In this document: piece by piece, positions 67 to 58,597 of the stretch
Layout: the number at the start of each line of letters is the position of its first letter
Position numbering within the stretch: position 1 is the stretch's first letter
Origin: Actinomycetes bacterium
GTDB taxonomy: Bacteria > Actinomycetota > Acidimicrobiia > Acidimicrobiales > Aldehydirespiratoraceae
Direction of reading: 5' to 3'
NCBI GenBank assembly: GCA_024276495.1
Contig: JAJRXC010000023.1
Coordinates: forward strand, 3,484 to 67,483
DNA length: 64,000 nt
Position numbers and translations under genes: made by a program
Notes under the pieces: model-generated
The model's input: only the letters and a program-made list of their open reading frames with translations
Databases searched by the model: none
What the model was told of the DNA's origin: nothing

Positions 67-876
67 ATGAGCGAACGCGACCACGATCTTCTCGTCGAAC
101 GCGACGGCCACGTGATGGTCCTGACCATGAATCGTCCTTCCCGGTTCAACGCCTTGTCGGGCGCGATGCTGATTCGGATGTTCGACGCCTACGAGGAGGC
201 GTCGGCGAATCCCGACGTCCGCTGCATCGTCGTCACCGGAGCGGGCGGCAACTTCTGTTCGGGGGCGGATCTCAAGGCGATGGCCGGCGACGGCGACGAC
301 GGAGATCCGCTCGACACCCGGGCCCGCCTGGCCGAGGATCCCGACATCGTCTACAAGGCGCTGTTTCGTCACTACCGCCCGACGAAGCCCATCGTCGCCG
401 CCGTCGAGGGGGTCGCCATCGCCGGGGGAACCGAGCTGCTCCAGGCCATGGAGATCCGGGTGGCGGGAGAGAGCGCCCGGTTCGGTGTGAGCGAGGCCCG
501 GTGGTCGTTGTATCCGATGGGCGGTTCCGCGGTCCGCCTTCCCCGCCAGATTCCCTACACCCACGCGGCGGAGATCCTGCTCACCGGCGCACACCTCACC
601 GCGGCCCAGGCTCGCGACATCGGCTTGATCGGTCACGTCGTGCCCGACGGTGATGCCCTCGACCGGGCACTCGAGATCGCCCGGGTGGTCGCGGCCAACG
701 GCCCGCTGGCCATCGCGGCGATCACCCGAACCCTCCACGAGTGCGACGGGATGGAGCTCGACCAGGCGCTCCGCCACGAATGGGAGTACGGACAGGCGGT
801 CTTCGCCAGCAACGATGCCAAGGAGGGACCACGGGCCTTCGCCGAGAAGCGCGACCCGTTGTTCACCGGCACCTGA
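67..876 (+). CDS. enoyl-CoA hydratase/isomerase (crotonase family)
   Basis: 269-aa ORF with crotonase-type core (VVTGAGGNFCSGADLK, later AAVEGVAIAGGTELL); length typical of the family. Confidence 0.85.
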   Translation: MSERDHDLLVERDGHVMVLTMNRPSRFNALSGAMLIRMFDAYEEASANPDVRCIVVTGAGGNFCSGADLKAMAGDGDDGDPLDTRARLAEDPDIVYKALFRHYRPTKPIVAAVEGVAIAGGTELLQAMEIRVAGESARFGVSEARWSLYPMGGSAVRLPRQIPYTHAAEILLTGAHLTAAQARDIGLIGHVVPDGDALDRALEIARVVAANGPLAIAAITRTLHECDGMELDQALRHEWEYGQAVFASNDAKEGPRAFAEKRDPLFTGT

Positions 877-2958: not shown

Positions 2959-3441
2959 TCACTCGGACACGTCGAACTCTCCGACCAGAACCGACGCGGT
3001 TCCGAGGGGTGAGTCGCCCCCGGCCAGGAAGTGCTCGTAGTAGCGCCGGAATCGGCCCTGGAGATGCTCGTCGATCTGGGCCCGGGAGTAGTCGAGGGTG
3101 AAGAACGAGCCCACGCCCATCTCCTCGGCTGCGGCCTTCGCGGCATCGGCGTCGTCCACGGCCCAGACCACACCGATCAGACCCTCCCCCTTCTCGGCGA
3201 TGATCGCCTCGATGTAGCTGTCGGCCCCAACGATCGGCGCCACCAGCTCCACACCGCCGTCCCAGCTGAACAGCACGCGAACGCCGAAGCGGGCGGCTTC
3301 CTCGTCGTCGCCGTGGTGGAACGTGCACCCCAGCAGACGTTCGTAGAACGACCGCCCGGCGTCGAGATCGCGAACGGCCATCACCACCCGGTTCACTCCC
3401 CGCTGACGAGTCGCCGACTTCTCCGGTCCTGTTTCGGTCAT
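2959..3441 (-). CDS. VOC family (glyoxalase/bleomycin-resistance fold) protein
   Basis: Track ORF 2959..3528. I prefer the ATG at 3441 (MTETGPEK...), preceded by a GGGAGG RBS. VOC-like motif VNRVVMAVRDLDAGRSFYERLLG. Confidence 0.7.
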   Translation of the reverse strand: MTETGPEKSATRQRGVNRVVMAVRDLDAGRSFYERLLGCTFHHGDDEEAARFGVRVLFSWDGGVELVAPIVGADSYIEAIIAEKGEGLIGVVWAVDDADAAKAAAEEMGVGSFFTLDYSRAQIDEHLQGRFRRYYEHFLAGGDSPLGTASVLVGEFDVSE

Positions 3442-3511
3442 CTGCCCTCCCGGCACCATCGGGGTCACGGTAGTGGGATACTCAGATGAGCTCGAAACGC
3501 CGGGAGGCCTG

Positions 3512-6500
3512 ATGACGGACGCCGACACCTACCGCCTCAGCGATCGCTACCGCCGCGACGAGGGCACGGTGTTCATGACCGGCATCCAGGCTCTGGCCCG
3601 TCTCCCGATCGAGCAGCTCCGGATCGACCGTCGCAACGGCCGCTCGACCGCCGCGTTCGCGGCCGGCTACCCGGGCTCCCCACTCGGCGGCCTCGACGGG
3701 GCCTTCGCCGCGGCGGCCCGCGAGGCGGCCGACCTGCCGATCATCCTGCGGCCGTCCGTCAACGAGGAGCACGCGGCCACCGCGGTCATGGGAAGCCAAC
3801 TCGCCACGACCCGCGCCGACGCCCGCTACGACGGCGTCCTCGGCTTGTGGTACGGCAAGGCACCCGGCGTCGATCGGGCCGGCGACGCCCTTCGTCACGG
3901 CGCGTTCGCCGGCTCCGACCCCCTCGGGGGCGCGGTGGCCCTCGTCGGCGACGATCCGAACGCGAAGTCGTCGACCCTCCCGTCGACATCGGCCGGCACC
4001 CTCGCGTCGATGCACATCCCGGTGATCTACCCCGGTGATCCGGCCGAAGCGCTCGACCTCGGCCGCCATGCCATCGCGCTCAGCCGGGCCAGCGGGCTGT
4101 GGGTCAGCTTGAAGATCGTCGCCGACGTCGCCGACGGATCGGGCACGGTGACCCTCGATCCCGACCGGATCGATCCGGTGATTCCCACCATCGACGGCCG
4201 GCCCTACGCCCATCGGCCCAACGGAATGCTGGTCACCCCGTTCAGCCTCGACATCGAAAAGGAGATCATCGAGACCCGTCTTCCGCTCGCCCTCGAGTAC
4301 GCCGCGGCCAACCGTCTCAACCACACGACCATCGATCCGTCCGACGCCTGGGTCGGGTTGGTCTCCTCCGGCATCACCTATCGGGAACTTCGTGAAGGGC
4401 TGCGTCGCATCGGGCTCGAGGACGACCATGACATCGAAGCCGCCGGAATCCGCCTCTTGAAGCTGGGGATGCCCATACCGTTCAACGCCTCGACGATCCG
4501 AGACTTCGCCCGGGGCCTCGACCTCATCGTCGTCGTCGAGGAGAAGACCCCGAACGTCGAGTCCCTGCTGAAGGACGCCCTCTACAACGCGAGCCACCAT
4601 CCGACCGTCATCGGTCGGACCGACGAGCACGAACGACCACTCATCCCCGCGGCCGGCGCCCTCCACGCCGACGACATCATCCCGATGCTGCGCACGGTCC
4701 TGGCTGAGCGGCTGGGTGAACGACTCCGCCCCGATCGGCCGGCGCGCGAGAAGATCCCGCTCTCCGTGCGGCGCACGCCCTACTTCTGCTCGGGTTGCCC
4801 TCACAATCGCAGCACGGTCGTCGACGACGGCACGCTGGTCGGTGCCGGCATCGGATGCCACACGATGGTCCTGCTCGGCGGCGAGCCCCGATACGGCGAC
4901 ATCGGCGGCCTGACGTGCATGGGCAACGAGGGAACCCAGTGGATCGGGATGGCCCCGTTCGTCGAGACCGGACACATGGTCCAGAATCTCGGCGACGGCA
5001 CCTTCTTCCACTCCGGACAACTCGCCATCACCGCGGCCATCGCCGCGGGGGTCGACATCACCTACAAGCTGTTGTGGAACGGCACCGTCGCCATGACCGG
5101 CGGTCAGGACCCGACCGGCCGCATCGACATCGACCGGGTCTGCCGCCAACTCCTCGCCCAGGGAGTGGCCCGCATCATCATCACCTCCGAGGACCCGGCC
5201 CGGGCCCGGGCCCGTCGACTCCCACCCGAGGTCGAGACCTGGGATCGGCGTCGACTCGCCGATGCGCAGCGCGAGTTGGCGGCGATTCCCGGTGTCACCG
5301 TGCTGATCCACGACCAGCGCTGCGCGGCCGAGTTGCGCCGCGACCGGAAGCGGGGACGAATCGAACCGCCCCGCACCCGCACGGTCATCAACCATCGGAT
5401 TTGCGAGGGGTGCGGCGACTGTGCCGCAGTGTCGAATTGCCTCTCGGTCCAGCCCCTCGACACCGTGTTCGGCCGTAAGACCACGATCGAGCAGGACAGC
5501 TGCAACTTCGATCTGTCCTGCATGGAGGGTGACTGTCCGGCCTTCATCTCGATCACCTCACCTCGACGGCGTTGGTGGCGGCCCTCGCGGCGGGTGGACC
5601 GGCCGACACGATCAAGGCCGCCCGTCCCACAGGATCTCCCCCCGCCGGAGGCCCGCGCCGCCGACGATGTCAGCGTCCACATCACCGGAATCGGCGGGAC
5701 CGGCGTCGTCACCGTCTCCCAGATGATCGGCACCGCGGCGATGCTCGAAGGAGCCGACGTACAGGGCCTCGACCAGATCGGCCTCTCGCAGAAGGCCGGA
5801 CCGGTCGTGTCCGATGTCCGGATCGCCCACGGCGCGCGGGCCGGCAGCAGTCGGGTCGGCGCGGGAGAAGCCGATCTTCTCCTCGCCTTCGACCTGCTCG
5901 TCGCCTCCTCGTGGACGGGGCTCGATGCCACCGACCCGTCACGAACGTCGGTCGTCGGCTCACTCGACCTGACACCGCCGGGCACGAAGACCGCGCATCC
6001 CGAAACCGCGATGCCCACCACCGAGCATCTCCTCGCCCGCATCGACGAGGGCACCCGAGAGGGCGCCCGGCACTGGGCCGAGGCCGCCGCCACGTGTCAC
6101 GACCTGGTCGGTGACACCGTCGGCGCCAACATCTTCGTGGTGGGAATGGCCGTGCAGGCCGGGCTTCTGCCGGTCGAGCCCGCCTCGATCGAACGGGCGA
6201 TCGAGCTCAACGGTGTCGCGGTCGACCTGAACCGGGACGCGTTCCGATGGGGTCGATGGCAGGTGGCCGACCCTCGACGGGTCGACGCCGCCCGGGATTC
6301 CACCGCCGAGACGGCGCCGGTCGTGGCGCTCCGAGACGAGCTCCGATCTCGGGTCGAACATCTGACTGGGGCCGGTTCGCCGTTCGCCGAGACACTGACG
6401 CGTCTCACCGCGGAACTGATCGCGTTTCAAAACGATGCCCTCGCGCACTCCTACCTCGACACGTTGGAGCGCATCGCCAACGAGTCCGGCGGCTCACCCG

Positions 6501-9642: not shown

Positions 9643-10773
9643 GTGACCCCCGAACCCGAAGATCCCCTCGATGGCGCGCTCGTCGCGCTCGCCCACCCCG
9701 ATGGCGTGCACGAGGCCGATCGGGTCTTGGCGGCGTTCGGGAGCCCGCTCGAGTCTGCATTCCTCGCCGAAGTGGCACGCCACCGGCTCGAAGCCCCGCT
9801 GGTCGACGCGCTCGTGTCCGCCGGCCAACCGGTACCACCCCTGCTCGAACGCATCGTCGCCGATGATCGGCTGACGCGGCTGCGGGTGGGTGCGGTCCTG
9901 GCCCGAATCGCGCCCCGGCTCGATGCCAGTGGGATCGAGTGGCTCACGTTCAAGGGCCCGATGATCTCCTCGCTCATGAGCCGTCCGGAGCTGCGCACCT
10001 TCAACGACCTCGATCTTCTCGTCGGCCCGGACCGTTTCGCTGACGCGGTCGATCTCCTCGTCACCGCGGGCGCAGAGGAGCTCAACCACAACTGGCTGCC
10101 CTACATCCGACATCGTGTCGGTGAGGTCCCGATGGACATGCAGGGGGCCACCGTCGACCTCCACTGGCACCTCATCGGGCTCTACCACCATCGCCGGGCC
10201 TTTCGGCTCCCGGTGTCGGCCATGCTCTCGCGGCGGCGCCACCGCCGCATCGGCGATCGGGAGCTCCCGGGATTCGACGCGGAGGATCAACTCCTCCAGC
10301 TCGCCCTCCACGCCGCCATGTCGGGGGCGACCCGTCTCGATCAGCTCCGCGATCTGGCGGTGGTGGCGGCTGCGGACCCCGTCGATTGGCCCCGGTTCGA
10401 GTGCCGGGCCCGCGACGCCCGGGTCGGCGTTCTCGTCGCGCACGCGCTCGACCGGGCCGGTCGCGTGCTGGGGGCACCCGTCGACAACGATGTCGTCGAC
10501 CGCCTCGGCGGACGCCTGGTCTCGGTCCGGCGTCGCCTCGACGGCACGCGGGTGCGGGGGCTACGGGCGTTCACCGTCGTCGCCGGTCGTGACTCCGTCC
10601 CGGCGACGGTCGTCGCCACGAGTCGGCGGCTCCGCGACATCACCGCGGGAGCGCTCGGCCGTGGACGTGGTTGGGACTTCACCGACGAACGCGGGCGTCT
10701 GTTCGCCTCGCGAGCCAGCGGTGGGCCGTCGGCCCGCGCGACCTTCCTGCGGAGCCTGCCCGACTGGGCGTGA
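9643..10773 (+). CDS. nucleotidyltransferase family protein (uncharacterised NTP_transf_5-like type)
   Basis: 376-aa ORF; pol-beta-type NTase signature around LTFKGPMISSLMSRPELRTFNDLDLLVGPDRF. This family is commonly found beside PqqD / HprK-like genes. Confidence 0.7.
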   Translation: MTPEPEDPLDGALVALAHPDGVHEADRVLAAFGSPLESAFLAEVARHRLEAPLVDALVSAGQPVPPLLERIVADDRLTRLRVGAVLARIAPRLDASGIEWLTFKGPMISSLMSRPELRTFNDLDLLVGPDRFADAVDLLVTAGAEELNHNWLPYIRHRVGEVPMDMQGATVDLHWHLIGLYHHRRAFRLPVSAMLSRRRHRRIGDRELPGFDAEDQLLQLALHAAMSGATRLDQLRDLAVVAAADPVDWPRFECRARDARVGVLVAHALDRAGRVLGAPVDNDVVDRLGGRLVSVRRRLDGTRVRGLRAFTVVAGRDSVPATVVATSRRLRDITAGALGRGRGWDFTDERGRLFASRASGGPSARATFLRSLPDWA

Positions 10774-10784
10774 CCGGACGCGCA

Positions 10785-10810
10785 CATGGGAGCGGCGAAC
10801 CGCTCCCATG
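10785..10810. terminator. perfect hairpin between convergent nucleotidyltransferase gene and precursor peptide A1
   Basis: catgggagcgg-cgaa-ccgctcccatg: 11-bp stem, 4-nt loop. It lies 12 nt after the NTase stop and 20 nt after the A1 stop. No T-tract. Confidence 0.5.
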
Positions 10811-10829
10811 TCGTCGCGTCCGTTCGGGA

Positions 10830-10955
10830 TCAGTCGGGGGTCTGCTCCCACACGCGGCCGCTCCCGCGGCGGATCGGCTTCACGCCGTTCTCGCCGTGGG
10901 CGAGCGATCCCTCGAGCGAGACCTGGGCCTTGATCGCCGGCTTGCCGTACTGCAT
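10830..10955 (-). CDS. RiPP precursor peptide candidate A1 (41 aa): MQYGKPAIKAQVSLEGSLAHGENGVKPIRRGSGRVWEQTPD
   Basis: Not in the ORF track (below its size cutoff). ATG at 10955 preceded by AGGGAGA RBS, TGA at 10832-10830. Paralogous to A2 (26/36 identical N-terminal positions). Lasso-type Y-x-K-P-x-I leader motif. Confidence 0.6.
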   Translation of the reverse strand: MQYGKPAIKAQVSLEGSLAHGENGVKPIRRGSGRVWEQTPD

Positions 10956-10989
10956 CTGACTGTTCTCCCTTGTGTCGCTAACATCACTC

Positions 10990-11018
10990 AGCGTAGCCAT
11001 TCGAATACGCGAAGTAAA
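10990..11018 (-). promoter_or_regulatory. putative promoter of A1 (-35 TTTACT, 17 nt spacer, -10 TACGCT on minus strand)
   Basis: Manual match to TTGACA/TAnnnT about 35 nt upstream of the A1 ATG; equivalent arrangement upstream of A2. Confidence 0.3.
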
Positions 11019-11103
11019 GAATGGTTCGCTGCGTCGGAGAGGTGACCCGACGTCGTGAACACTACCACTCCACGTGAGGCGGGGCGGGATCCCGGACCGG
11101 AAC

Positions 11104-11139
11104 GCGAGAGTGGGAACGGCGAACCGTTCCCACTCTCGA
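11104..11139. terminator. hairpin downstream of precursor peptide A2
   Basis: cgagagtgggaacgg-cgaa..-ccgttcccactctcg: about 14-15-bp stem with the same cggcgaaccg apex as the 10785-10810 hairpin. It lies 20 nt after the A2 stop. Confidence 0.5.
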
Positions 11140-11158
11140 GCTCAATTGGCTGACGTTG

Positions 11159-11290
11159 TCAGCGCGCCAAGGTGTCGTCAAGCCAGCCGCGGCCGCTGCC
11201 ACGCCGGATCGGCTTCAGTTGGCCTTCGCCCTGCGAGAGTGAACCCTCGAGCGAAACCTGCCCCTTGATCGTCGGCTTTTCGTACTTCAT
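11159..11290 (-). CDS. RiPP precursor peptide candidate A2 (43 aa): MKYEKPTIKGQVSLEGSLSQGEGQLKPIRRGSGRGWLDDTLAR
   Basis: Not in the ORF track. ATG at 11290 preceded by GAGGAGA RBS, TGA at 11161-11159. Paralogue of A1 with its own promoter-like region and hairpin. Confidence 0.6.
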   Translation of the reverse strand: MKYEKPTIKGQVSLEGSLSQGEGQLKPIRRGSGRGWLDDTLAR

Positions 11291-11325
11291 TCCATCTCTC
11301 CTCACCAAAAGTGGTTACCCCACGA

Positions 11326-11355
11326 ACCGTAGCATTTTTCCTACGTTGCGTGCAA
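11326..11355 (-). promoter_or_regulatory. putative promoter of A2 (-35 TTGCAC, 18 nt spacer, -10 TACGGT on minus strand)
   Basis: Manual match about 36 nt upstream of the A2 ATG; mirrors the A1 arrangement. Confidence 0.3.
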
Positions 11356-11428
11356 TGGGCGCAATGACCCCGAATCGACGACCCGGGCATCCCCACGATA
11401 CCACTCCGGGTGAGACGAGTCGGTGACC

Positions 11429-11869
11429 TCACCGTCGACCGCTCGACCACACGCGACGGCGCACGGTCCGGGCGACCCGGCGAAGACGAAACGCGGCGGC
11501 GCTCCCCAGACGGTCGAGCGTTCCAAACCCTTTCACCGAGCCATCCGGGGCCACGACCGTCGTGACCCGACCGATCGCCTGCGCCAACGGCACCGGGGGG
11601 TCGTCGACGGGATTCCCCGAGCCCCGGCCGGTGACATGGTCGCCGTCCACCTCCCGCACACGGTGGACCACGATCACTCCGGCATCGTTGGTGAAGCCCC
11701 AGATCTCGCCGCGCCGGGGCGCACCCGCCCCTTCCACCACGACCGTCGAGCCCGACTCGATCACCCCGACCATGCTCGATCCGCTCACGGGCAACTCGAT
11801 CGGGCCGGACTCGAGGCGCCGTCGAAGCAGCCGGGCCGTGGCCACCGGATCCAGCGGGCTCTCTGACAT
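11429..11869 (-). CDS. S26B-type (SipW/Sec11-like, Ser/His) signal-peptidase-like protein without membrane anchor; candidate leader peptidase
   Basis: 146 aa; catalytic-Ser box VSGSSMVGVIESGSTVVVE, His box VIVVHRV, and GRGSGNPVDDPPV resembling the GDNN..D box. No hydrophobic N- or C-terminal segment. Confidence 0.65.
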   Translation of the reverse strand: MSESPLDPVATARLLRRRLESGPIELPVSGSSMVGVIESGSTVVVEGAGAPRRGEIWGFTNDAGVIVVHRVREVDGDHVTGRGSGNPVDDPPVPLAQAIGRVTTVVAPDGSVKGFGTLDRLGSAAAFRLRRVARTVRRRVWSSGRR

Positions 11870-11930
11870 TCGGCGACCGTACCGCGGCCCGATCCCCGAT
11901 TCCGAGGATCATCTGGGCTTTCATGGGCCC

Positions 11931-12866
11931 ATGGCGACGAACGACCAGCCGTGGACGGTGCAACTCGATGTGGCCGGTGTCTCGGTCGCCACCACGGCGC
12001 CGCGCCCCTACGCGCCGTGCATCCGGGGGCGCCTCGGAACCGTCGAGTCCGACGCGGCGACCGAGCTCACCCTCATCGTGCGCGAGACGGCCCCGCCACC
12101 CCCGGACCGCGCACCCGACCAGTCGATCGAGGGATTCGACGCCTGGGAGGAAGAGGGTGTGCTCTGGATCGGCCGGGGCTGCACCCACGCCCGCGTCGAG
12201 GGCGACACCGTCGAGGTCGGGGGGCCACTCGAGGGCGACGCCGACGAGGACACGCTCGACGATCTCCTCCAGTTCTCCATCGCCCAGGCACTCGCCACCC
12301 CCGGACGAATCATGATCCACGGTGCGGTGATCTCCACGGCCGACGACGCCGTCGTCGTGGTCGGCGGCAGCGGCCAGGGAAAGTCGACGCTCGCTGCCGC
12401 TGCCCTCGTCGGCGGCTGGCAGCTCCTCGGCGACGACCTGGCCCTGGTCGACACCGGCCGCTCACTCGTACGGGCGGTGCAACGGCCCCCCATGGTGCCG
12501 GCCGACATCGCCGAACGGCACGGGCTCGGCGGACAGCCGGAGGCGGGTGGGCGGGGCCGGGTCCGGCTTCCCGTCGACGTGCTCCACGCCGGGTCCCGTC
12601 GTCTGGTCGGAGTCGTCTCGGTTGCCCACGGCGACGAAGGCGGCGTGACGATCAGCGACGGTGCCGACCTCCGCACGCTCGACGCCGCGCTCGCGGTCCC
12701 GCCATTCCGGGCCGTCATCCGCCGTCATCTCGCGGCGGGCGCGGCGCTGCTCGCGAGCCCGACCGTTCGCCTCGAACACGCCCGGGACCCATCCCGCCGG
12801 ATCGAGGTCGCGATCGAGTCGATCCGGGCCGCGATCGACCTGTGTCGATCCGCCGACCGTCAGTAG
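11931..12866 (+). CDS. HPr kinase C-terminal-domain-like P-loop protein (HprK-related putative peptide kinase)
   Basis: Start MATNDQPW at 11931 inside track ORF 11562..12866; Walker A in HprK-like context IHGAVISTADDAVVVVGGSGQGKSTLAAAAL...LGDDL. Confidence 0.7.
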   Translation: MATNDQPWTVQLDVAGVSVATTAPRPYAPCIRGRLGTVESDAATELTLIVRETAPPPPDRAPDQSIEGFDAWEEEGVLWIGRGCTHARVEGDTVEVGGPLEGDADEDTLDDLLQFSIAQALATPGRIMIHGAVISTADDAVVVVGGSGQGKSTLAAAALVGGWQLLGDDLALVDTGRSLVRAVQRPPMVPADIAERHGLGGQPEAGGRGRVRLPVDVLHAGSRRLVGVVSVAHGDEGGVTISDGADLRTLDAALAVPPFRAVIRRHLAAGAALLASPTVRLEHARDPSRRIEVAIESIRAAIDLCRSADRQ

Positions 12867-13669
12867 GTCGCGAGGGTGCCCGCACGGCGGGCCTCGGTGA
12901 CCGCCCGCCGGAAGACGAGGATCGCCAGGGGCATCGCGACAACCGCGAAGCCGGCCAGGACCGCGATCTCGAAGGTGACATCGCCGAGTCCGGCGTCGCC
13001 CTGGACGAGCTGTCGCGTCGCCCGCACGCCGTAGGTCGCAGGGACGATCTTGGCGACCGCCGCGAGCCAACCGGGCAGCACCGACAACGGGTAGAGGGCA
13101 CCGGACAGCAACAACGTGAGCTGGCGGGCCGGGCCGCTGAAGGGGTCACCGCGCTTCACCAGCACGATGAAGGCGGCCGAGAAGATGCCGAGGGGAACGA
13201 ACGAGGCCGTGGTGAGCAACAGCAGCGGGATGGCCTTCAGCAGGCCACCGACGGGTATTCCCGCCCCGAAGATGCCGAGACCGACGATCACGAGCACGAT
13301 CGTCTCGGCGATGACGAAGATCGCGGGAACGATGTAGCTGGCCGCCAGAATCGTCCACATCGGCGTAGGGGTCGCGAGGATCGCCTCGAGGGTTCCCTCG
13401 TTTTGCTCCTCTCTGATCTGACCGCCGAAGGACTGCATGCCGACGATCGCGAAGCTCGTCACGATCGCCCCGATCAGGACGAACTCGAAGTATCCGCCAT
13501 CGAGCTCACGGATGCTCTCGGGATCGCCGACGAACTCCCCGATGAAATAGAACGAGATCGCGAAGTACCAGAGATTCAGGATGTTCATGATCATGTTGAT
13601 CTTGTACGACGTGAGGGTGATGAGTTCCTTCTTGCCGATCGCCCGAATCCTCCGAAGGTCCGCCCTCAT
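12860..13669 (-). CDS. ABC-2 type transporter permease
   Basis: Start MRADLRRIRAIGKKEL at 13669 (ATGA overlap with the ATPase stop); six hydrophobic segments; ABC-2 permease pattern. Confidence 0.8.
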   Translation of the reverse strand: MRADLRRIRAIGKKELITLTSYKINMIMNILNLWYFAISFYFIGEFVGDPESIRELDGGYFEFVLIGAIVTSFAIVGMQSFGGQIREEQNEGTLEAILATPTPMWTILAASYIVPAIFVIAETIVLVIVGLGIFGAGIPVGGLLKAIPLLLLTTASFVPLGIFSAAFIVLVKRGDPFSGPARQLTLLLSGALYPLSVLPGWLAAVAKIVPATYGVRATRQLVQGDAGLGDVTFEIAVLAGFAVVAMPLAILVFRRAVTEARRAGTLATY

Positions 13670-14433
13670 GAGTCCGCCTCCGCGACCAGCCGCTCCAGGT
13701 GGGCGCCCAACCCGGCGGGGTCGCCGGCGATCTCCTCGGCACTGCCCTCCCATTCGATCCGCCCGTTGATGAGCGCGAGGACCCGGTCGCACGCGATCAC
13801 GACCTCGTCGAGACGGTGGCTCGCCATGAGCACGGCACGACCGTCGGCGGCGAGCGCCCGGATCTGCTCGCAGAGCTGGCGACCGGCGATGGGGTCGAGG
13901 CTTCGGGTCGGTTCGTCGAGCACCAGGAGGCCCGGATCGTGGAGCATCGCCCGGGCGATGCCGAGTTGGGCGAGCATGCCCGACGAATAGCCGAACACCG
14001 CCTTGTCGCGCGGGGCGAGGCCCCGTTCCTCCATCGCGGCGTCGACCGCGGCCTTGGTCCGGGCCCGGTCGAGCCCGGCCAGGGCGGCGAAGTACTCGAG
14101 GTTCTGGCGCCCGGTCAGGCGCCAGTGAAACGAGCGTTCCTCGGGAAGCGACAGACCGAAGAGCGTCTTGACCTCCTCGTCGTCGGGATCCACGCGCCGC
14201 CCACCGACGAAGATCTGCCCTTCGCTCGGGACCAGCAGCGTCGTGATCGCCCGTAGCAGCGTCGATTTTCCGGCGCCGTTGGGCCCGCCGAGCCCGACCA
14301 CCTCACCTCGGTTGACCCGGAAGCTGATGTCGCTGAGGGCGCGCACCGGTTCCTTCGTGGCCGAACGAATCAGCACGCCCAACACGCCCCGCGGCGGCTG
14401 ATACGTCATCCCGACGCCGTCGACCACGAGCAT
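13666..14433 (-). CDS. ABC transporter ATP-binding protein
   Basis: Walker A GPNGAGKST, signature YSSGMLAQLG, Walker B LLVLDEPT. Confidence 0.9.
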   Translation of the reverse strand: MLVVDGVGMTYQPPRGVLGVLIRSATKEPVRALSDISFRVNRGEVVGLGGPNGAGKSTLLRAITTLLVPSEGQIFVGGRRVDPDDEEVKTLFGLSLPEERSFHWRLTGRQNLEYFAALAGLDRARTKAAVDAAMEERGLAPRDKAVFGYSSGMLAQLGIARAMLHDPGLLVLDEPTRSLDPIAGRQLCEQIRALAADGRAVLMASHRLDEVVIACDRVLALINGRIEWEGSAEEIAGDPAGLGAHLERLVAEADS

Positions 14434-14435
14434 CG

Positions 14436-14699
14436 TCAGTCCAGCTCGACGAGCTTCGACTCGAGGAGCGACTCCACGAACGTGATGATGTCGGCTTCCA
14501 GCTCCTCGACGGAAACACCGTCGAACCGTGCCACGAGGTCCTTCGCCAGCGCGGCCGCGTCACGCCGACCATCGAGCTCCTGCCAGATCGCGGCGCCGAC
14601 CGGGTTGAGGGTGGTCATCACCGTGCCGTCGGCATCGAGAATCACCACCGTGTCTCCACTCGGTTCGAAAGAGACGCCGTCGCGTCGTCGAATCGCCAT
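14436..14699 (-). CDS. PqqD family protein (RiPP recognition element)
   Basis: 87 aa; PqqD pattern (LNPVGAAIWQELDGRRDAAALAKDLVARF...E.DI..F...L); 2-nt gap to the ABC ATPase start. Confidence 0.8.
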   Translation of the reverse strand: MAIRRRDGVSFEPSGDTVVILDADGTVMTTLNPVGAAIWQELDGRRDAAALAKDLVARFDGVSVEELEADIITFVESLLESKLVELD

Positions 14700-14779: not shown

Positions 14780-16291
14780 TCAGACACGGATCTTCGACAT
14801 CGAGTCGTCGAGACCACCCGGCCGGCTGCTGGACAACCACCCCGTCCGCATCGCCTCGACGACCGGGGCGATCTCCGCGGGCTCGGGGACGAGGGCCGGG
14901 CGGCCGTCGAGGTCGAGGCGATGCGCGGCACACAACCGTCGGAGACCGAGATGGGCCAACCGACAAGCCGCCTCCATCTCCCGCGCGACGATCGCTCCTC
15001 TCGGTCCTCCGACCGGGCCCGATCCGAACAGCTCGATCGCGTCGAGCAGCGAGCGATGGGCGGCATCGAAGGCATCGACGTCGGGGGTGCCGAATGTCGG
15101 GGCGGTGCCGGTCGTCATCGCGGCGTGCAGCGGCGACCCGTTCGGGCTGGACAGTCCGAGCGACTCGCCGATCCGCCCCAGTCGATCGATCAGGCTGCCG
15201 GTGCCGGGGTCGAACCCGGCGATCTCGTCGATCGTCGCGGCGACGGCGTCGGCGTTGGGGACTTCACCGGTACGGGCCGCGAGCCCTGCTCTCACGATCG
15301 ACGGGAGGGAGACGGCGAGGGGCTGCCAATGTCCGTTGTCGCCCCAGTCGGTGAGGAGAATCCCGGGACACCTCTGGGCCTGTCCGACCGCGACCGCGTC
15401 AGCGATGTTCGCGGTGGCGTTTGTGTTGCGACCGATGATCGAGTTCCACGTCGAGGTGCCCGGCGCGACCCAAAACGGAGTCCCGGACTCGATGAACAGT
15501 CGGGCATGGGCGCTGAACCCCTCGGACGCGTCGGGGGGAAGTCCGAGCCGCTCCGTCTGGGCGGGGGTGAGGTGATCCATCCAGCCCTCGACGCCGGGAG
15601 CTTCGTAGTTCCAGACGACCGCGACTGCCCCGTCGGGTATCTGCTCGATCAACGACGCGTCCCGGCGGAACAGGTCGGCCCAGAACATCACCTCGTGTCC
15701 GTCGCCGACCAGAGGCTCGATGATGCGCCGAAGATGGTCGAGATACACATGGTCGCGGCCTCGGCGTGCGACATCGGCGGCCGACGCGCCATCGCCGAGC
15801 TCGAAGGGTTCGTCGGCACCGATGTGGATCCGGTGATGACGAATCACCGATGCCATCTCACGGGCGAGCGCCACCGCGAAGCGAGCGTTCGCCGGGATGG
15901 GGGCAAGGCATCCCGGTGGGGTGAGCGAGCCGTCGAACGGGCTGACGTAGCCGAGTGGGCACTCGGCCATCGTCCGGTACTCGTCGTGCTCGAGCCAGCG
16001 GGCCATGTGCCCGAAGCCGTTCATGTTGGCCACGAGGTCGAGGCCGACCGACGCGCACCGGTCGTCGAGCCATCGGAGGTCGTCGTGGGTGAGCGGCGAG
16101 GCGCACCTCCAGACCGTCTCGTGTCCCCGATAGGTGAACGTGTGCTCGACGTACAGCTGCAACTCGTTGAACCCGGCCGCGGCAAGGACATCGGCGAGCC
16201 ATTCGAGGGTGGCGCGCGTCGGCACCCGGTCTCGGCTCACGTCGAGCATGAATGCCCGCCGCGACAGGCCGATCCCGTTGTTCCGGCTCAT
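14780..16291 (-). CDS. glycoside hydrolase family 20-like (beta-N-acetylhexosaminidase-like) protein
   Basis: 503 aa; FMLDVSRD and catalytic-type IHIGADEPFELG motif. Confidence 0.7.
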   Translation of the reverse strand: MSRNNGIGLSRRAFMLDVSRDRVPTRATLEWLADVLAAAGFNELQLYVEHTFTYRGHETVWRCASPLTHDDLRWLDDRCASVGLDLVANMNGFGHMARWLEHDEYRTMAECPLGYVSPFDGSLTPPGCLAPIPANARFAVALAREMASVIRHHRIHIGADEPFELGDGASAADVARRGRDHVYLDHLRRIIEPLVGDGHEVMFWADLFRRDASLIEQIPDGAVAVVWNYEAPGVEGWMDHLTPAQTERLGLPPDASEGFSAHARLFIESGTPFWVAPGTSTWNSIIGRNTNATANIADAVAVGQAQRCPGILLTDWGDNGHWQPLAVSLPSIVRAGLAARTGEVPNADAVAATIDEIAGFDPGTGSLIDRLGRIGESLGLSSPNGSPLHAAMTTGTAPTFGTPDVDAFDAAHRSLLDAIELFGSGPVGGPRGAIVAREMEAACRLAHLGLRRLCAAHRLDLDGRPALVPEPAEIAPVVEAMRTGWLSSSRPGGLDDSMSKIRV

Positions 16292-48671: not shown

Positions 48672-50909
48672 TCAGGCAGTGATGGTTCGCGTGCCCGCAT
48701 CGAAGTCGAGCTCGAGAACCTGACCGTCGCGTTCCCAGCGGTGGACCGGATCGAGCCGATCGACGGTTCCCCACGGGGAGTCGTGGCGGGGGTGATCCGC
48801 GATCTGGCGCGCGTGCCCGTCCACCACGAAGGGAGCCTCCCAACCGAACGTGAGTGGACCGGCCGTCGGTGAGGTCCACGACACCGAGACCTCGCTGCGT
48901 TCGCCGACCACGATCGGCTCGTCCGCGGTCACCGCAGCGACGAAGTCGTCGAACGAGCCGTCCGCCACCGTGCCCACTTCGACGATCCACACGTTGTCCG
49001 GGCCGCCCTCGGCGACCAGGTCGAACGGTTCGGTCATCCCGTCGGTCGCGTGGATCTCGGGGTCGTAGACCCGCCAACTCGTCGCCCGTCTCGACCACAA
49101 CGCGATGTGGCCGCCACGCTTGGTCCCCATCGTCCAGTTACCGACCTGGCGCACCTCGTCGAAGTGGTTCTGGGGGAAGTACGCGTGGGTGAAGTCGCGG
49201 TAGCGGAACACGAGGCCGAGGATCGGATCGGTGTTCTCGTCGTAGAGCGGTGAGTAGATGTGGATCGCCGTGCGCTCGAACTGAGCGGTGCGCGGCATCG
49301 ATGCCTCCCCCGTCCAGTAGCCGGGGATCGGATCGTCGCGCCAGTTGGTCGATTCGGGGAGCGCCGTCATCGGGTGGGTCGTGAACACCCTCGCATCAGG
49401 GTCGATGGTGGCCTGCCAGATGTGAACCTGGTCGCGCATCTGCCCCTTGCGGTGATCGAGCACGCTGGCCAGGCTCACGTGGGGACTTCGCCACACATAG
49501 GTGTTGGCCTCGTCGAGGCCCCCGAGGTTGAGGATCATGTAGTTGTCGTACACCCACTGTTCGATCCGCTCGACATCGCCGCCCATGACATCGCTGAGCT
49601 GCTTGATCTGGGTGAACACGTCGCCTTCCCACAGCCGGTACCGGTCGGCTTCCGCCGTGCTGATCTCGGCGAGCTGCCAGAGGCCGATGCCGCCGGTGGA
49701 CCACCAGAACGCGAGGTTGGCCGGGTCCTTGAAGTCGTAGCCGAACGGCGCCTCGGGCGAGTCGCTGATCGGTTCGCGCGAGTTCACGTGGATGCCGTGA
49801 CGCTCTCGGGTGACCGTCACCGAATCGTCGCGGGCGATGTCGATGATCAGCTGTGGTGGCCGATACCGATCGGCCAGACCGAAGTAGGTGGCGGTGGTGC
49901 TGTCCGTGGTCTCGAAGCCGCCGGGCGTGCGATCGAAGAGCAGCTTCGCGACGTCGAAGGTGTCCTCGTCGCGCGCCGTCATCTTGTCCTTCTTGTACGT
50001 GCGGCCGTGCGGAGCCACGTAGGCGCCGCGGTGATGGTGGGTCGCCATGTCGAACAGGCACAGATCGAGTCCCCGTGCGGCCGCTTCGACGATCTCGATG
50101 TCGTCGGAGAGCTCGCACAGCATCAGCAACGGGGAGATGTTCTTCGCCATGTACACGTTGGAATGCCACTCGAAGAACCCGAACCGTCCCCGTTCCCTCA
50201 CCCATTCGAGGATCTCGGGTCGGGCCCGCGCCGCCTGCTCGGCGCCGGTGAGGCCGGTGACGGTGAAGACCTCGTCGGGGAAGAACTGACCGGCGAGCAA
50301 CTCGTTGGCCAAGGTGATGATGCGATGGTTCTCGGACCAGTACCAGAGGTGGTCGACGCGGTCCGCGGGAAGCGGATCGTCGTAGCGATACCGGTTGTCG
50401 ATCATGCGTCGGGTGATGGCGTCGATCAGCGCGGGATCGAGACGGGTCATCGGCGTGTCGCCCTGCCCGTGGACCAGCAACCAGTTGAAGTACATGAACT
50501 GGAAGTCGCGGGTGTCGCGCCACTCGTCGAGCTGCGTCCACCGGTCGGCGAATCCGTCGACGGTCACCGCTTCGATGTCCCACTCGTAATCGGGGTCCCG
50601 TCGGGCCAGGGCCAGCTGCACGGCGACACCGGAAGCCGACGCGGGCCGAAGGGTCGCCCCGGCGAACCGCAGGTACTCCTCGACCCGGGCCTGGAAGTAG
50701 GCCTCGTCGACGAGGCCAGGCGATCCGGGAACGGCCAACCCGGCCGGCGCGGGCGCGGTCGTCGGCGGCGGCGGCGGCGGCAAACCCAGCCCGGTCGTGG
50801 GCGGCAGGGTCGTCGTCGGGGCCGCGTCGGGGCCCGGATCCGAGCAGGCGCCGAGCACGGCGAGGCCGGTCGCGCCGAGCAGGAACGATCGCCGATCGAG
50901 AGGATTCAT
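48672..50909 (-). CDS. Tat-signal lipoprotein of unknown function (745 aa)
   Basis: N-terminus MNPLDRRSFLLGATGLAVLGACS (twin-Arg + lipobox); protein-like composition throughout; no family I can assign with confidence. Confidence 0.7.
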   Translation of the reverse strand: MNPLDRRSFLLGATGLAVLGACSDPGPDAAPTTTLPPTTGLGLPPPPPPTTAPAPAGLAVPGSPGLVDEAYFQARVEEYLRFAGATLRPASASGVAVQLALARRDPDYEWDIEAVTVDGFADRWTQLDEWRDTRDFQFMYFNWLLVHGQGDTPMTRLDPALIDAITRRMIDNRYRYDDPLPADRVDHLWYWSENHRIITLANELLAGQFFPDEVFTVTGLTGAEQAARARPEILEWVRERGRFGFFEWHSNVYMAKNISPLLMLCELSDDIEIVEAAARGLDLCLFDMATHHHRGAYVAPHGRTYKKDKMTARDEDTFDVAKLLFDRTPGGFETTDSTTATYFGLADRYRPPQLIIDIARDDSVTVTRERHGIHVNSREPISDSPEAPFGYDFKDPANLAFWWSTGGIGLWQLAEISTAEADRYRLWEGDVFTQIKQLSDVMGGDVERIEQWVYDNYMILNLGGLDEANTYVWRSPHVSLASVLDHRKGQMRDQVHIWQATIDPDARVFTTHPMTALPESTNWRDDPIPGYWTGEASMPRTAQFERTAIHIYSPLYDENTDPILGLVFRYRDFTHAYFPQNHFDEVRQVGNWTMGTKRGGHIALWSRRATSWRVYDPEIHATDGMTEPFDLVAEGGPDNVWIVEVGTVADGSFDDFVAAVTADEPIVVGERSEVSVSWTSPTAGPLTFGWEAPFVVDGHARQIADHPRHDSPWGTVDRLDPVHRWERDGQVLELDFDAGTRTITA

Positions 50910-56831: not shown

Positions 56832-57713
56832 TCAGCCGGTGATGCCGCGGAGCATGACCACGGCGGCAGGGTTGAGCGATGCAACGTCGTAGCGGGCAAC
56901 GACTCGGATGGCTTGCTGGTCGTAGTCGCCGAACGTTTGGTCGAGGATCTTCACCGACGGGGATAGGTCACGGGCGACGGCGATCTGGGAGAAGTCGGCG
57001 AGCACGATCTCGGACTCGTCGGAACCTGCGCCGCCGTCGATCGGAAGTCGATTGGTGATGGTCACCGGCAGGCCGAGAAGTTGGAACGCGCCCTCGCGGG
57101 TGGGGTCGGGCTGGAGTTGGTAACGGTCCTGGAGGTCTTTGATCTTGCGAAGGTTGACGAAGTCCCGAGAGGGCATGAGCCACCGCATCCGTTCGGCATC
57201 CGCGTTCGATCCCATCGCGAGGCCGACGGCGTCGTGCAGGTCGTCGAGGGCGATCACGCCGACGCCGGTCAGCTCTTGGGTGCCGGTCCAGTTCACGATC
57301 CCTTCTGGTTCGGTGCCGGATGGGGTGCCGCCGTCCCCGGTCAGGAACGCCTGATCGATCTGAGACGCAACGTCGCGCACCATCCGGTCCCGCAACGCGG
57401 CTTCGAGAGCGACGACGGACTGGCGGGCCAGCTCGTTGCTGAACCGGGTCAGTGACTTCACGGATTTCAGCGTCGAGGGCAACAGCGTGATCTCGCCGAA
57501 ACCGGCGTCCACTTCGTCGATCAACTCGTTCTCGCCGTGCCACGACGGCGTCGTCATCGACGTGAGCTTCGGCACCCGAACCGGGGAACCGTCCGTGTCG
57601 AAGATCCGCGGCCCCGCAGCGAGGAACACGCTCGCTGTCTCCAACGGTTGGACAAGTATCGCCTGAACCTGCTCTTGCGTCAGTTCTGCGGCGGTGGTGG
57701 TATCTGCGGCCAT
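56832..57713 (-). CDS. phage major capsid protein, HK97 fold
   Basis: 293 aa; HK97-family pattern (...TLLPSTLKSVKSLTRFSNELARQS...DQAFLTGDG...RYQLQPDPT...LLGLPV...). Confidence 0.85.
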   Translation of the reverse strand: MAADTTTAAELTQEQVQAILVQPLETASVFLAAGPRIFDTDGSPVRVPKLTSMTTPSWHGENELIDEVDAGFGEITLLPSTLKSVKSLTRFSNELARQSVVALEAALRDRMVRDVASQIDQAFLTGDGGTPSGTEPEGIVNWTGTQELTGVGVIALDDLHDAVGLAMGSNADAERMRWLMPSRDFVNLRKIKDLQDRYQLQPDPTREGAFQLLGLPVTITNRLPIDGGAGSDESEIVLADFSQIAVARDLSPSVKILDQTFGDYDQQAIRVVARYDVASLNPAAVVMLRGITG

Positions 57714-57853
57714 TGGCCCTCCAAGGTCTCGAACGGATCATCTCGTTCGCCTTGGCCGCCAGGGCCTCGCAGCGTCTCGTCGGCACCAGGCCGACCCGTG
57801 TGATTATATCTCCTAGAAGGTCAGGCGCTTGTCCATAGAGCAGGAGCGGGGCG

Positions 57854-58567
57854 TTGAAGGACGTACGGGTAGACCGCGAGGGAGACTTCCGATGCTGGAA
57901 ATGCGGAGGCAAGAACTTTCTCGCTAAGCGGACAGGGCGGGCGCACGTCCTTGGCTACGTCACAGTTGGAATCGGGGCGCTGGCCACTCAGAAGAAGCTG
58001 AAATGCCAGGGGTGCGGCAGCTACAACCAGGTCGGCAACGCCAAGCCCTACGTTCGCGACCTTCCGAAACCAAGAGGGATCATCAAGGACACTAAGCCGA
58101 TGAACAAGGTCATTGACCCGGAACTCGTTGGGATCACTCCGGACGACCCAGCCTGGACCCGCGGTATGTCAGACGAAGAGATCCGCGTCATGAACGAACG
58201 CAGGCTTCCGGCCGCTACTCCCAGCCCTGGCCCGGATTCCACGCCTGACGATACGGCGACCGAAGGAAAGTGCTGCCCATTCTGCGCTGAGACGATCAAG
58301 GCCGCCGCCATCAAGTGCAAGCATTGCGGGGAGTTCCTCGCCGACTCGACGAAGTCAGAGTTCGATGTTGTGCTCGTGAGCGCCGGAGAGAATAAGATCC
58401 AGGTCATCAAGGAACTCCGAAGTCTCGTTCCCAACCTCGGCCTCAGAGAGGCAAAGGATCTCGTCGACCATGCCCCGACTCCGGTGGCGCTCGGTCTTCC
58501 CGAGGGTTCGGCCGAGCGCCTCAAACTCTTGCTGGAACATCACGGCGCGATCATCGAATTGCGATAG
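57854..58567 (+). CDS. zinc-ribbon protein fused to ribosomal protein L7/L12 C-terminal domain
   Basis: TTG start with AGGAG RBS. Two CxxC...CxxC ribbons (CWKCG...CQGCG; CPFCA...CKHCG). The C-terminal 70 aa EFDVVLVSAGENKIQVIKELRSLVPNLGLREAKDLVDHAPTPVALGLPEGSAERLKLLLEHHGAIIELR align with the bL12 CTD. Confidence 0.75.
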   Translation: MKDVRVDREGDFRCWKCGGKNFLAKRTGRAHVLGYVTVGIGALATQKKLKCQGCGSYNQVGNAKPYVRDLPKPRGIIKDTKPMNKVIDPELVGITPDDPAWTRGMSDEEIRVMNERRLPAATPSPGPDSTPDDTATEGKCCPFCAETIKAAAIKCKHCGEFLADSTKSEFDVVLVSAGENKIQVIKELRSLVPNLGLREAKDLVDHAPTPVALGLPEGSAERLKLLLEHHGAIIELR

Positions 58568-58597
58568 CCCGATTGCCCCTGAGGCGAAAGTTCTCGA

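Follow-up and report, generated by a model that had tools for sequence, protein, structure and literature searches.

A cyclase-less gene cluster in an Acidimicrobiia-type actinobacterium that probably directs the synthesis of short, basic, linear phosphopeptides of the LPP type

The gene set discussed here has a described counterpart in the Bacillota, where Popov et al. (Nat Commun 2026;17:6633; May 2026) found it to yield linear polyphosphorylated peptides (LPP), a kind of RiPP (peptides that are synthesized by the ribosome and then modified post-translationally; PMC13381572). Our subject is a cluster of eight genes at positions 9643-14699 of a 64-kb window, by which we mean the whole stretch of DNA that was analysed (64,000 nucleotides; assembly GCA_024276495.1, contig JAJRXC010000023.1, positions 3,484 to 67,483 of the forward strand), from an actinobacterium of the Acidimicrobiia. 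In the LPP cluster of Paenibacillus alginolyticus, lppA-K-B-S-D-N, and its relatives, the precursors carry the motif YxxPxVLxHQxIxFETxxS, and two thirds of the LPP clusters lack the cyclase and the B2 protease of the lasso peptide pathways. The expression of lpp in Bacillus subtilis gives the precursor and a leader-less core of 45 residues, each with one to four phosphates on Ser3 of the core; the deletion of lppK results in the loss of the +80 Da series, and that of lppS in the retention of the leader. Cleavage by LppS requires LppB, whose residues N33 and D70 hold the kink at the leader Pro and the hydroxyl of the leader Tyr, and the S29A, H68A and D93A mutants of LppS are inactive. The Bacillota gene set gives linear products even beside a lasso cluster, and the family is stated to be restricted to this phylum (PMC13381572). 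We recovered the lpp-plus-lasso locus of Paenibacillus frigoriresistens, in which LppS is 97% identical to the published protein, LppK belongs to PF27840 and LppN to PF14907.

The other described point of reference is the group of lasso peptides that are phosphorylated on a C-terminal Ser, paeninodin and pseudomycoidin. In the latter case, PsmN, the sole characterized enzyme of the NTP_transf_5 type in a RiPP context, is needed for the addition of a hexose (+162 Da) to the phosphoserine, and the residues D158/D159 of the kinase PsmK and D134/D136 of PsmN are essential (PMC6993621).

The reading we propose for the window is that of a self-contained LPP-type RiPP cluster, whose products would be linear peptides, short and basic, that carry phosphate on a single conserved Ser; by analogy with the Bacillota system we consider it quite probable. 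The cluster most likely represents a known kind in a divergent actinobacterial branch, and not a new class. An earlier note on this stretch had listed eight genes, all of which are present at the coordinates it gave, and had read them as a biosynthetic cluster. That reading stands as far as the RiPP module is concerned, which is conserved and for whose phosphorylation and leader cleavage the Bacillota now provide a precedent, and is not supported for the nucleotidylation and the novelty of architecture that it included. Its statement that no characterized product with this gene set was known is outdated by the LPP publication; the description of the gene set by Popov et al. brings down the claim of an uncharacterized architecture with it. 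The profile searches which it had proposed recovered PqqD (E 2e-17), NTP_transf_5 (PF14907, E 3e-32) and ABC2_membrane (E 7e-18), a weak match to Hpr_kinase_C and a Peptidase_S24 match just below the threshold. In this module, the nucleotidyltransferase gene is convergent with the peptide gene or genes, which lie downstream of the peptidase gene on the opposite strand; the kinase gene diverges from the peptidase gene and converges with a group formed, in the order of transcription, by the PqqD, ATPase and permease genes.

Two small genes on the minus strand encode the putative precursors, A1 (41 residues, 10830-10955, MQYGKPAIKAQVSLEGSLAHGENGVKPIRRGSGRVWEQTPD) and its paralogue A2 (43 residues, 11159-11290, MKYEKPTIKGQVSLEGSLSQGEGQLKPIRRGSGRGWLDDTLAR), which has the same leader. 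Each gene has its own purine-rich ribosome-binding site (AAGGGAGAA upstream of A1, GGAGAG upstream of A2), and the exact peptides are annotated as genes in the public NCBI record. The leader motif that had been read in both peptides as Y-x-K-P-x-(I/L) was scanned for in the form Y-x-[KR]-P-x-I, which is found exactly twice in the six-frame translation of the 64 kb, in A1 and in A2; shuffled sequences predict 0.18 occurrences. Homologues of A1 occupy the equivalent position in eight other loci, and the resulting 11 precursors from nine loci align without a gap from the leader Tyr onwards. This Tyr, Lys at +2, Pro at +3 and Ile at +5 are invariant, followed by a hydrophobic position and then by Leu at P3, Gly at P1 and Leu at P2' of the predicted cleavage site, which separates MQYGKPAIKAQVSLEG from SLAHGENGVKPIRRGSGRVWEQTPD in A1 and MKYEKPTIKGQVSLEG from SLSQGEGQLKPIRRGSGRGWLDDTLAR in A2. 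The leader end thus reads L-x-G-x-L, with x being Glu in 8 of the 11 precursors. We favour cleavage after L-x-G since its P3 Leu and P1 Gly fit the -3/-1 rule of S26 peptidases as well as the F(-3)/T(-1) requirement of LppA. The lack of a Thr at -2, held to be an anomaly in the earlier note, is none, as the L-x-G end matches the F-E-T of LppA that is recognized by LppS. Cleavage after residue 19, at the lasso spacing, was also considered and was rejected, as P1 would be E, R or M in several members, contrary to the A-x-A rule of signal peptidases, which the L-x-G site does fit. The calculated monoisotopic masses of the A1 and A2 cores are 2745.41 and 2952.56 Da for a cut after L-E-G, and 2474.25 and 2665.42 Da for one after residue 19. 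In comparison with the LPP precursor logo, A1 and A2 present Y..P.I, a Q and the hydrophobic-E-small end; their leader is two residues shorter and the Ser3 of the core is not kept, position +3 of the core being variable in the family (A, S, M, G, E or R).

Past the leader, the cores diverge; they have 15-28 residues, many of them Arg, Lys or Gly, and as many as 11 of 17 can be basic. One Ser is nevertheless kept in every core, in the context R-G-S in nine of them, Y-G-S in one and R-F-S in one. It lies 10-25 residues into the core and is the last residue in the loci L102 (…GRRGS) and L103 (…NRFS), and 2-11 residues from the end elsewhere. We favour it as the phosphorylation site because it is the only conserved hydroxyl residue of the cores, is the sole Ser in four of them and is C-terminal in two; the predicted phosphosite of A1 would be the Ser of RGSG. 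Its C-terminal position in two members agrees with what the kinases of paeninodin and pseudomycoidin prefer, those closest to the kinase of the window. As an observation apart, the precursor genes of L102 (about 5300-5420, minus strand) and L103 (about 700-830, minus strand) have an apparent GTG start and are not annotated in the source assemblies; the encoded cores are extreme in their poly-Arg character (ELGRRRRRRRRRGRRGS and ELSGRRCNRRRRRRGKCGRPGNRFS, respectively), and that of L103 has two Cys.

The removal of the leader would be the task of the 146-residue product of 11429-11869 (minus strand), a soluble signal-peptidase-like protein of the S26B type (SipW and endoplasmic reticulum (ER) enzymes) which alignment and fold designate as the LppS counterpart. 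It shares 29% identity with LppS over 90 residues (BLASTP, E 7e-10) with the triad in register: the predicted S32 (in an S-M motif), H69 (in an H-R motif) and D90 align with S29, H68 and D93 of LppS, and the alignments show them invariant across the orthologues and 34 Bacillota LppS homologues. The S26B enzymes of the ER/archaeal type, SipW and SEC11 among them, are marked by a His as the general base, whereas S24 enzymes use a Lys. The archaeal-type signal peptidase I profile TIGR02228 also matches (E 1e-7). The AlphaFold model (predicted local distance difference test score, pLDDT, 85) has a beta core between an N-terminal helix (8-19) and a C-terminal helix (117-144) that is long and basic, and matches the C-domain of LexA and human SEC11, the catalytic subunit of the signal peptidase complex. 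The maximum hydropathy over 19 residues is 1.08 (a membrane-bound archaeal signal peptidase I has 2.79), so that there is no membrane anchor. The description of this protein as an anchor-less S26B-type peptidase is therefore borne out by the missing hydrophobic segment, the Ser/His/Asp triad and the S24/S26 fold.

The gene at 11931-12866 (plus strand) encodes a predicted HprK-like peptide Ser kinase of 311 residues (Pfam ScmC, PF27840), with a Walker A motif GGSGQGKST (145-153) and an LGDDL motif at residue 166, whose metal-binding DD (168-169) is equivalent to D158/D159 of PsmK. The patterns GxSGxGKST and LGDD are invariant among its homologues, which carry PF27840, as does LppK. The AlphaFold model (pLDDT 94) has the PEPCK/HprK fold. 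Direct profile hits are weak and concern Hpr_kinase_C and TIGR04352 (E 1.6e-14), and a sequence search of the PDB with the kinase profile gave only weak matches to HprK and to generic P-loop proteins. On the plus strand as well, at 9643-10773, lies the gene for the nucleotidyltransferase of the NTP_transf_5 family, a putative tailoring enzyme of the LppN/PsmN type (376 residues). Its D-x-D motif, within NDLDLL at residue 121, is equivalent to the essential D134/D136 of PsmN, and an HWH motif follows at residue 174; the PDB sequence search returned no match for it. Literature searches on NTP_transf_5 with PqqD and on SynChlorMet/ScmC found nothing relevant.

The discrete RiPP recognition element (RRE) of the cluster is a PqqD-family protein of 87 residues (14436-14699, minus strand), the counterpart of LppB and of the lasso B1 proteins. 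In a single-sequence search of the PDB spurious WD40 matches prevailed, which called for a profile; built from eight orthologues, it matches PbaB1 (9x90) at 7e-8, TbiB1 at 1.6e-7, LppB (9x8z) at 6e-7 and a true PqqD (3g2b) at 7e-3. Residues N32 and D70 are invariant in the eight orthologues and align with N33 and D70 of LppB, and together with the LppB and lasso B1 structures they lead us to predict that this RRE binds the Y-x-K-P-x-I part of the leader. A B1-type RRE and a YxxPx[L/I/V] leader, known as features of lasso clusters, are thus present, although they do not discriminate in favour of a lasso since they are also found in LPP and pyrroloquinoline quinone (PQQ) systems (PMC13381572). 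PQQ biosynthesis itself was tried as an assignment and rejected: the TIGR03859 score is 41.2 bits for a cut-off of 46, none of the eight genes encodes a radical S-adenosylmethionine (SAM) enzyme or a PqqB/C homologue, and the RRE profile prefers the lasso and LPP elements. The exporter consists of a separate ABC-2 type, DrrB-like permease (12860-13669, minus strand), an export or immunity component, and a DrrA-like ATPase (13666-14433, minus strand; ABC_tran, E 1e-25; TIGR01188 drrA, E 2e-46), whereas the LppD of LPP is a fusion of ABC_membrane and ABC_tran; it is a functional analogue of LppD, the membrane part not being homologous. The stop of the ATPase gene overlaps the start of the permease gene (ATGA) and two nucleotides separate the PqqD gene from the ATPase gene, by which the three genes are translationally coupled.

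A lasso cluster requires an Asn-synthetase-like cyclase, C, and a transglutaminase-like Cys protease, B2. Neither is found in the window, as the earlier note had maintained: the motif scan, the Pfam searches of the large and flanking open reading frames (ORFs) and tblastn are all negative. The SGGxDS PP-loop motif is in no long ORF of the 64 kb; in L011, L016 and L017, which are true lasso loci, the same scan does detect it. No Asn_synthase domain was found by Pfam in the eight large ORFs outside the cluster and the two flanking genes, a search in which the small ORFs were not all scanned; these ten genes encode ordinary metabolic enzymes or secreted proteins of no known family. With seven lasso cyclases as queries, tblastn gave noise only in the window and nothing in 12 related loci (flanks of up to 10 kb), and with five B2 proteases a best E of 0.16 in the window and again nothing in the 12 loci. 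The queries originated from fetched loci and, as a positive control, match 29 further loci that bear a kinase, among them L020 of Paenibacillus. A scan of metagenomes with a kinase alignment and a generic P-loop pattern gave, among the matches listed, distant kinases only, mostly from true lasso clusters. Furthermore, the Asp or Glu that a lasso cluster needs at positions 7-9 of the core is missing from A1 and A2, where a Glu stands at position 6 if the cut is after LEG, or 3 if it is after residue 19. L001, L002 and L018 have cores with neither Asp nor Glu, which makes a lasso macrolactam chemically impossible for these three.

A comparison with 5.8 billion proteins gives about 25 close relatives of the kinase, one of them from an Acidimicrobiales metagenome-assembled genome (MAG). 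The survey of co-occurrence suggested by the earlier note shows that the module recurs with gene order and orientation unchanged and at about 50% identity, complete in seven other loci (L001, L002, L004, L005, L018, L101, L102) and partial in three (L003, L019, L103), and never with a cyclase. These loci come from MAGs of Acidimicrobiales, Candidatus Microthrix and unclassified Actinomycetota (GTDB genomes and assemblies), and the identity of the module proteins between loci is 47-80%. Orthologues of the nucleotidyltransferase, 48-51% identical, are in the same position in L001, L002, L004 and L005, an NTP_transf_5 gene takes this place in L018, L101 and L102, and orthologues of the permease (60-76% identical) are present in all the related loci; those of the ATPase are 68-80% identical. 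The surroundings, on the other hand, differ: MaoC, CitE and acyl-CoA dehydrogenase genes on one side and a gene resembling glycoside hydrolase family 20 (GH20) on the other in the window, an ATP synthase subunit a gene and a family 2 glycosyltransferase (GT2) gene in L004, a LuxR-type response regulator and an AI-2E transporter in L001, L002 and L005, a molybdopterin oxidoreductase and RsgA in L018 and L101, a ferredoxin and a major facilitator superfamily (MFS) transporter in L102. With at least five different kinds of surroundings, it is the eight genes that form the unit, and they have no further constant partner.

Serine phosphorylation and leader cleavage have been demonstrated for the Bacillota homologues only, and for the window we infer each step of the following pathway. 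A1 and A2 would be translated and their Y-x-K-P-x-I leader bound by the PqqD-type RRE, as suggested by N32/D70 and by the LppB and lasso B1 structures. The HprK-like kinase would then phosphorylate the conserved Ser of R-G-S-G, possibly repeatedly, a step to which conservation and the examples of LppK, PadeK and PsmK point. The NTP_transf_5 enzyme may extend the phosphate, a hexose being the only precedent; this is the least certain step. The soluble S26B peptidase, with the leader presented by the RRE, would cut after the invariant L-x-G as LppS does after F-E-T, and the ABC-2 transporter would export the basic linear product.

Several observations weigh against the assignment of this pathway to the LPP type. 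Two proteins fall below their curated cut-offs, the kinase widely (TIGR04352, 53.7 against 200 bits) and the peptidase narrowly (Peptidase_S24, 23.0 against 23.3 bits). The two tailoring enzymes are closer to lasso proteins than to LPP ones: the kinase matches PbaK, the lasso kinase encoded next to LppK, at 96.9% (1.9e-10) and LppK at 90.2% (1.6e-6) in hhalign, and at 5e-10 and 5e-3, respectively, in BLASTP, and the nucleotidyltransferase matches the lasso-type PbaN at 1e-10 and LppN at 3e-3 in BLASTP. The RRE profile shows no preference for LppB over the lasso B1 proteins. The exporter is a two-gene ABC-2 system of the DrrAB type and not MsbA-like as in LPP; the leader has two residues fewer between the RRE motif and the cut and ends in L-E-G instead of F-E-T; the R-G-S serine lies at or near the C-terminus, whereas LPP is modified on a Ser3 just past the cut that is not conserved here. 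The deletion of lppN results in no change, and no activity of LppN was seen in the heterologous host (PMC13381572). With the kinase and the nucleotidyltransferase closer to PbaK and PbaN, and the RRE indifferent, orthology with the Bacillota LPP system is not established.

The same observations feed the alternative that survives best, in which the cluster belongs to an independent lineage with the same chemistry, an offshoot of the lasso pathways that phosphorylate a C-terminal Ser, which would have lost the cyclase and B2 and recruited the S26B peptidase by itself. Besides the affinities of the two tailoring enzymes, the different exporter and the placement of the Ser, as in paeninodin and pseudomycoidin, away from core position 3, this explanation draws on the peptidase, which is 35% identical to a Micromonospora signal peptidase I that pairs only with an RRE and 24% to LppS in the same alignment, and on the stretch from the Tyr to residue 19, which has the lasso spacing Y(-17)/P(-14)/I(-12) with a Leu at -2. 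It has to account, however, for an L-E-G leader end like the F-E-T of LppA, preceded by a Q-x-hydrophobic that also recalls the LPP logo, and for the fact that all five protein families are common to LPP. A faster evolution of LppK and LppN, and not the order of branching, could also explain the scores of these short and divergent proteins. We regard this origin as a serious possibility that is on the whole less probable than its contrary. The fuller form of the idea, an independently evolved cyclase-less lasso descendant that would have converged on LPP and that would make a distinct chemotype of short Arg-rich peptides with a (poly)phospho- or glycosyl-phospho-Ser, seems to us rather unlikely.

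A second alternative keeps the LPP-type framework and concerns the nature of the product, in which the NTP_transf_5 enzyme would transfer a nucleoside monophosphate, such as AMP (+329 Da), to the Ser or to its phosphate. The family does possess a D-x-D motif of the nucleotidyltransferase type, PsmN has been modelled on aminoglycoside nucleotidyltransferases (PMC6993621), and the substrate of LppN is not established (PMC13381572). The only experiment performed on this family in a RiPP context, however, gave a PsmN-dependent hexose of +162 Da on phosphoserine (PMC6993621), no nucleotidylated LPP product has been seen (PMC13381572), and the PDB sequence search detects no solved structure for PF14907, nor has a mechanism been characterized. 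The +329 Da AMP adduct which the earlier note had predicted thus has no precedent, and we judge a nucleotidylated product improbable.

In a third alternative, the pathway would be a split one: A1 and A2 would be lasso precursors, the genes for their cyclase and B2 would lie at another place in the genome, and the present locus would be left with recognition, tailoring and export. The lasso-type YxxPx[I/L] motif, the match of the RRE profile to the lasso B1 structures and the kinase and nucleotidyltransferase, whose nearest relatives are lasso tailoring enzymes, speak in its favour, as does the fact that the cyclase and B2 search covered the window rather than the rest of the source genome, a point that also counts against our proposal. 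Yet the two enzymes are missing from the window and from the 12 related loci, every complete locus has a dedicated alternative leader peptidase, A1 and A2 lack an Asp or Glu at positions 7-9, whichever of the two candidate N-termini is counted from, in a family with three cores devoid of any acidic residue, and the Bacillota gene set remains linear in its output next to a lasso cluster (PMC13381572), all of which make a split lasso pathway very improbable. Lastly, that the small ORFs are non-functional and the S24-like protein a self-cleaving regulator of the LexA/UmuD kind next to an unrelated ABC-2 drug exporter is hardly credible in spite of the LexA and lambda-repressor C-domains among the best Foldseek matches of the peptidase model and a Pfam match to Peptidase_S24 slightly under its cut-off, given that the general base is the His of an S26B-type H-R motif and not the Lys of S24, that the peptidase has no DNA-binding domain, that the small ORFs show protein-level conservation across nine loci, at the same place and in the same orientation, each with a ribosome-binding site and a terminator, and that all seven proteins co-occur across differing genomic contexts.

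To return to the proposed LPP-type cluster, its intergenic regions contain two GC-rich hairpins. The first (10785-10810; folding free energy -25.3 kcal/mol, z -5.2) lies between the convergent A1 and nucleotidyltransferase genes and is a likely bidirectional terminator; the second (11105-11138; -34.5 kcal/mol, z -7.7), 3' of A2, is likely to act as a terminator or an attenuator between A2 and A1. None of 200 shuffled sequences folds as stably as either of them. Their lack of a T-tract caused them to be missed by a simple terminator scan, and the folding shows both to be real. The loop GGUUCGCC is found in both and the stems are alike, so that the duplication of the peptide gene seems to have taken its terminator along. 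The 61 bp that separate the kinase gene from the divergent peptidase-precursor operon (11870-11930) presumably hold both promoters; a consensus scan found no sigma-70-type promoter in it, a result that is uninformative for a high-GC actinobacterium.

Some neighbouring genes are worth recording. The three Microthrix-like loci are flanked by a FabH gene with a LuxR-type regulator and, at the opposite end, by an AI-2E family transporter (3317-4003 and 8914-10098 in L001, with equivalents in L002 and L005), which may be a matter of plain shared ancestry of the three genomes. Carbohydrate genes adjoin the PqqD end in three loci, namely the GH20-like gene of the window (14780-16291, minus strand; a weak match, E 3e-6), the GT2 glycosyltransferase of L004 (10261-11259), and in L103 (4230-8121) a GT28-like gene with three methyltransferases; they could be linked to the partner postulated for LppN, or be there by coincidence.

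More distant assemblies of the same kinds of genes were also encountered. In L104 (777-7294, GCA_038316365.1), a kinase of the ScmC type, with 35% identity across the aligned 75% of the query, is accompanied by an MsbA-like ABC transporter, an NTP_transf_5 protein, two JmjC_2 proteins (hydroxylase-type), a peptide of 32 residues (MQDKAYEAPAVEDRTSVEEPLNIISSSDRKLQ) and a PqqD protein; neither an S26-like peptidase nor a cyclase was found in these limits. A minimal variant in L006 (6635-13020, an Actinomycetota MAG) groups an MFS transporter, a nucleotidyltransferase, a kinase, a peptide (MSAKRYEAPRVEERAEVTASMMRAGSYRREYDGDAGD), a PqqD protein and a protein of 448 residues without a Pfam match, with no S26-like peptidase or ABC-2 pair adjoining and a Transglut_core protein 7 kb away. 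Loci of the SynChlorMet type in Syntrophaceae and Syntrophales MAGs (L012, 3175-16564; also L014 and L015) comprise, in the order seen in L012, PqqD, a radical SAM/SPASM protein, an unknown, a second radical SAM/SPASM protein, another unknown, two HprK-like proteins, an LppS-like peptidase (42-57 bits in tblastn), an MsbA-like ABC transporter and NTP_transf_5. These Syntrophales loci place the whole LPP-type module in a third phylum as well, in combination with radical SAM enzymes.

Elsewhere in the window, a head-morphogenesis module on the minus strand (56832-62818) probably belongs to a prophage that runs past the window end. It encodes a major head protein (56832-57713), a scaffold (58598-59074), a maturation protease (59029-59604), a portal (59601-60971; PHROG, E 4e-127) and a large terminase (60917-62818; E 1e-93), all on the minus strand, and the GC content drops from about 0.69 to 0.63-0.66 across 56-64 kb. 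Two large ORFs for proteins of 745 and 706 residues (48672-50909 and 52937-55057, both on the minus strand) have no Pfam match at E 1e-3 and begin with signal-peptide-like or Pro/Thr-rich low-complexity stretches.

A compact, self-contained version of the system in Acidimicrobiia, without an adjacent lasso cluster, indicates that the LPP family is broader than described. It provides an independent comparison set for the residues that are truly required, the Y/K/P/I of the leader, the L-x-G at the cut and one Ser, and its cores of 15-28 residues with a single conserved Ser are simpler substrates for the study of the kinase and of the PF14907 enzyme. Poly-arginine cores with a predicted phospho-Ser are chemically unusual, which could bear on their function. 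If the convergent descent from lasso pathways were true, the module would, together with the SynChlorMet loci of the Syntrophales, be a portable cassette spread across at least three phyla and not a Bacillota-specific one, and its products would be linear, with up to 11 Arg/Lys in 17 residues and a cap near the C-terminus. In genome mining, cyclase-less "lasso-like" matches that include an S24/S26-like gene are better classed as LPP-type than as broken lasso clusters.

Four known systems share part of this equipment. The SynChlorMet cassette (ScmC, TIGR04249; ScmD, TIGR04248; radical SAM/SPASM proteins ScmE/F) has in common with the window a PF27840 HprK-like protein and a PqqD-like one; the window cluster is devoid of radical SAM/SPASM enzymes and reaches 16.5 of the 125 bits required for ScmC and 40.2 of the 100 bits for ScmD. 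The HPr-rel-A system also pairs an HprK-like protein with a PqqD-family chaperone (TIGR04352 with PqqD_rel_X, TIGR04353), and TIGR04352 is the best NCBIfam match of the kinase; the scores are nevertheless 53.7 for 200 and 14.3 for 35 bits, and the match covers the P-loop region only. SipW of B. subtilis, which processes TasA and TapA, belongs to the same S26B subfamily as the window peptidase and has the S-M and H-R motifs and the later conserved Asp; it is anchored in the membrane and cuts Sec signal peptides, whereas the window enzyme, without a hydrophobic segment, is predicted to be cytoplasmic and to act on an RRE-bound leader. The paeninodin (PadeK) and pseudomycoidin (PsmK, PsmN) pathways share the HprK-like kinase with its P-loop and DD, the NTP_transf_5 enzyme with its D-x-D, the discrete RRE, the YxxP-type leader and the C-terminal target Ser, and it is on this lasso side that the window kinase and nucleotidyltransferase find their best matches. 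They differ from the window in having a cyclase and B2, where the window has a serine peptidase as the leader remover, A1 and A2 cores without the ring-forming Asp/Glu and, in most members of its family, a tail of 2-11 residues after the Ser.

In conclusion, LPP remains the system with which the most is shared: the anchor-less SipW-like S26B peptidase, the discrete RRE, the PF27840 kinase, the PF14907 enzyme, an ABC exporter, the lack of cyclase and B2, and small precursors, one to three of them, that carry YxxPx[V/I] in their N-terminal part and end their leader with hydrophobic-E-small. LPP belongs to Bacillota, and the window module to Actinomycetota of the Acidimicrobiia type, with cores of 15-28 residues rich in Arg and Gly; it is not beside a lasso cluster, and a single glycosyl-related gene accompanies it at three loci, no capsular-polysaccharide locus having been identified. 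What is new here is the actinobacterial lineage, contrary to the stated restriction to Bacillota, and, as far as the sequences tell, a different exporter, a shorter leader, a C-terminus-proximal Ser in Arg-rich mini-cores and more lasso-like tailoring enzymes.

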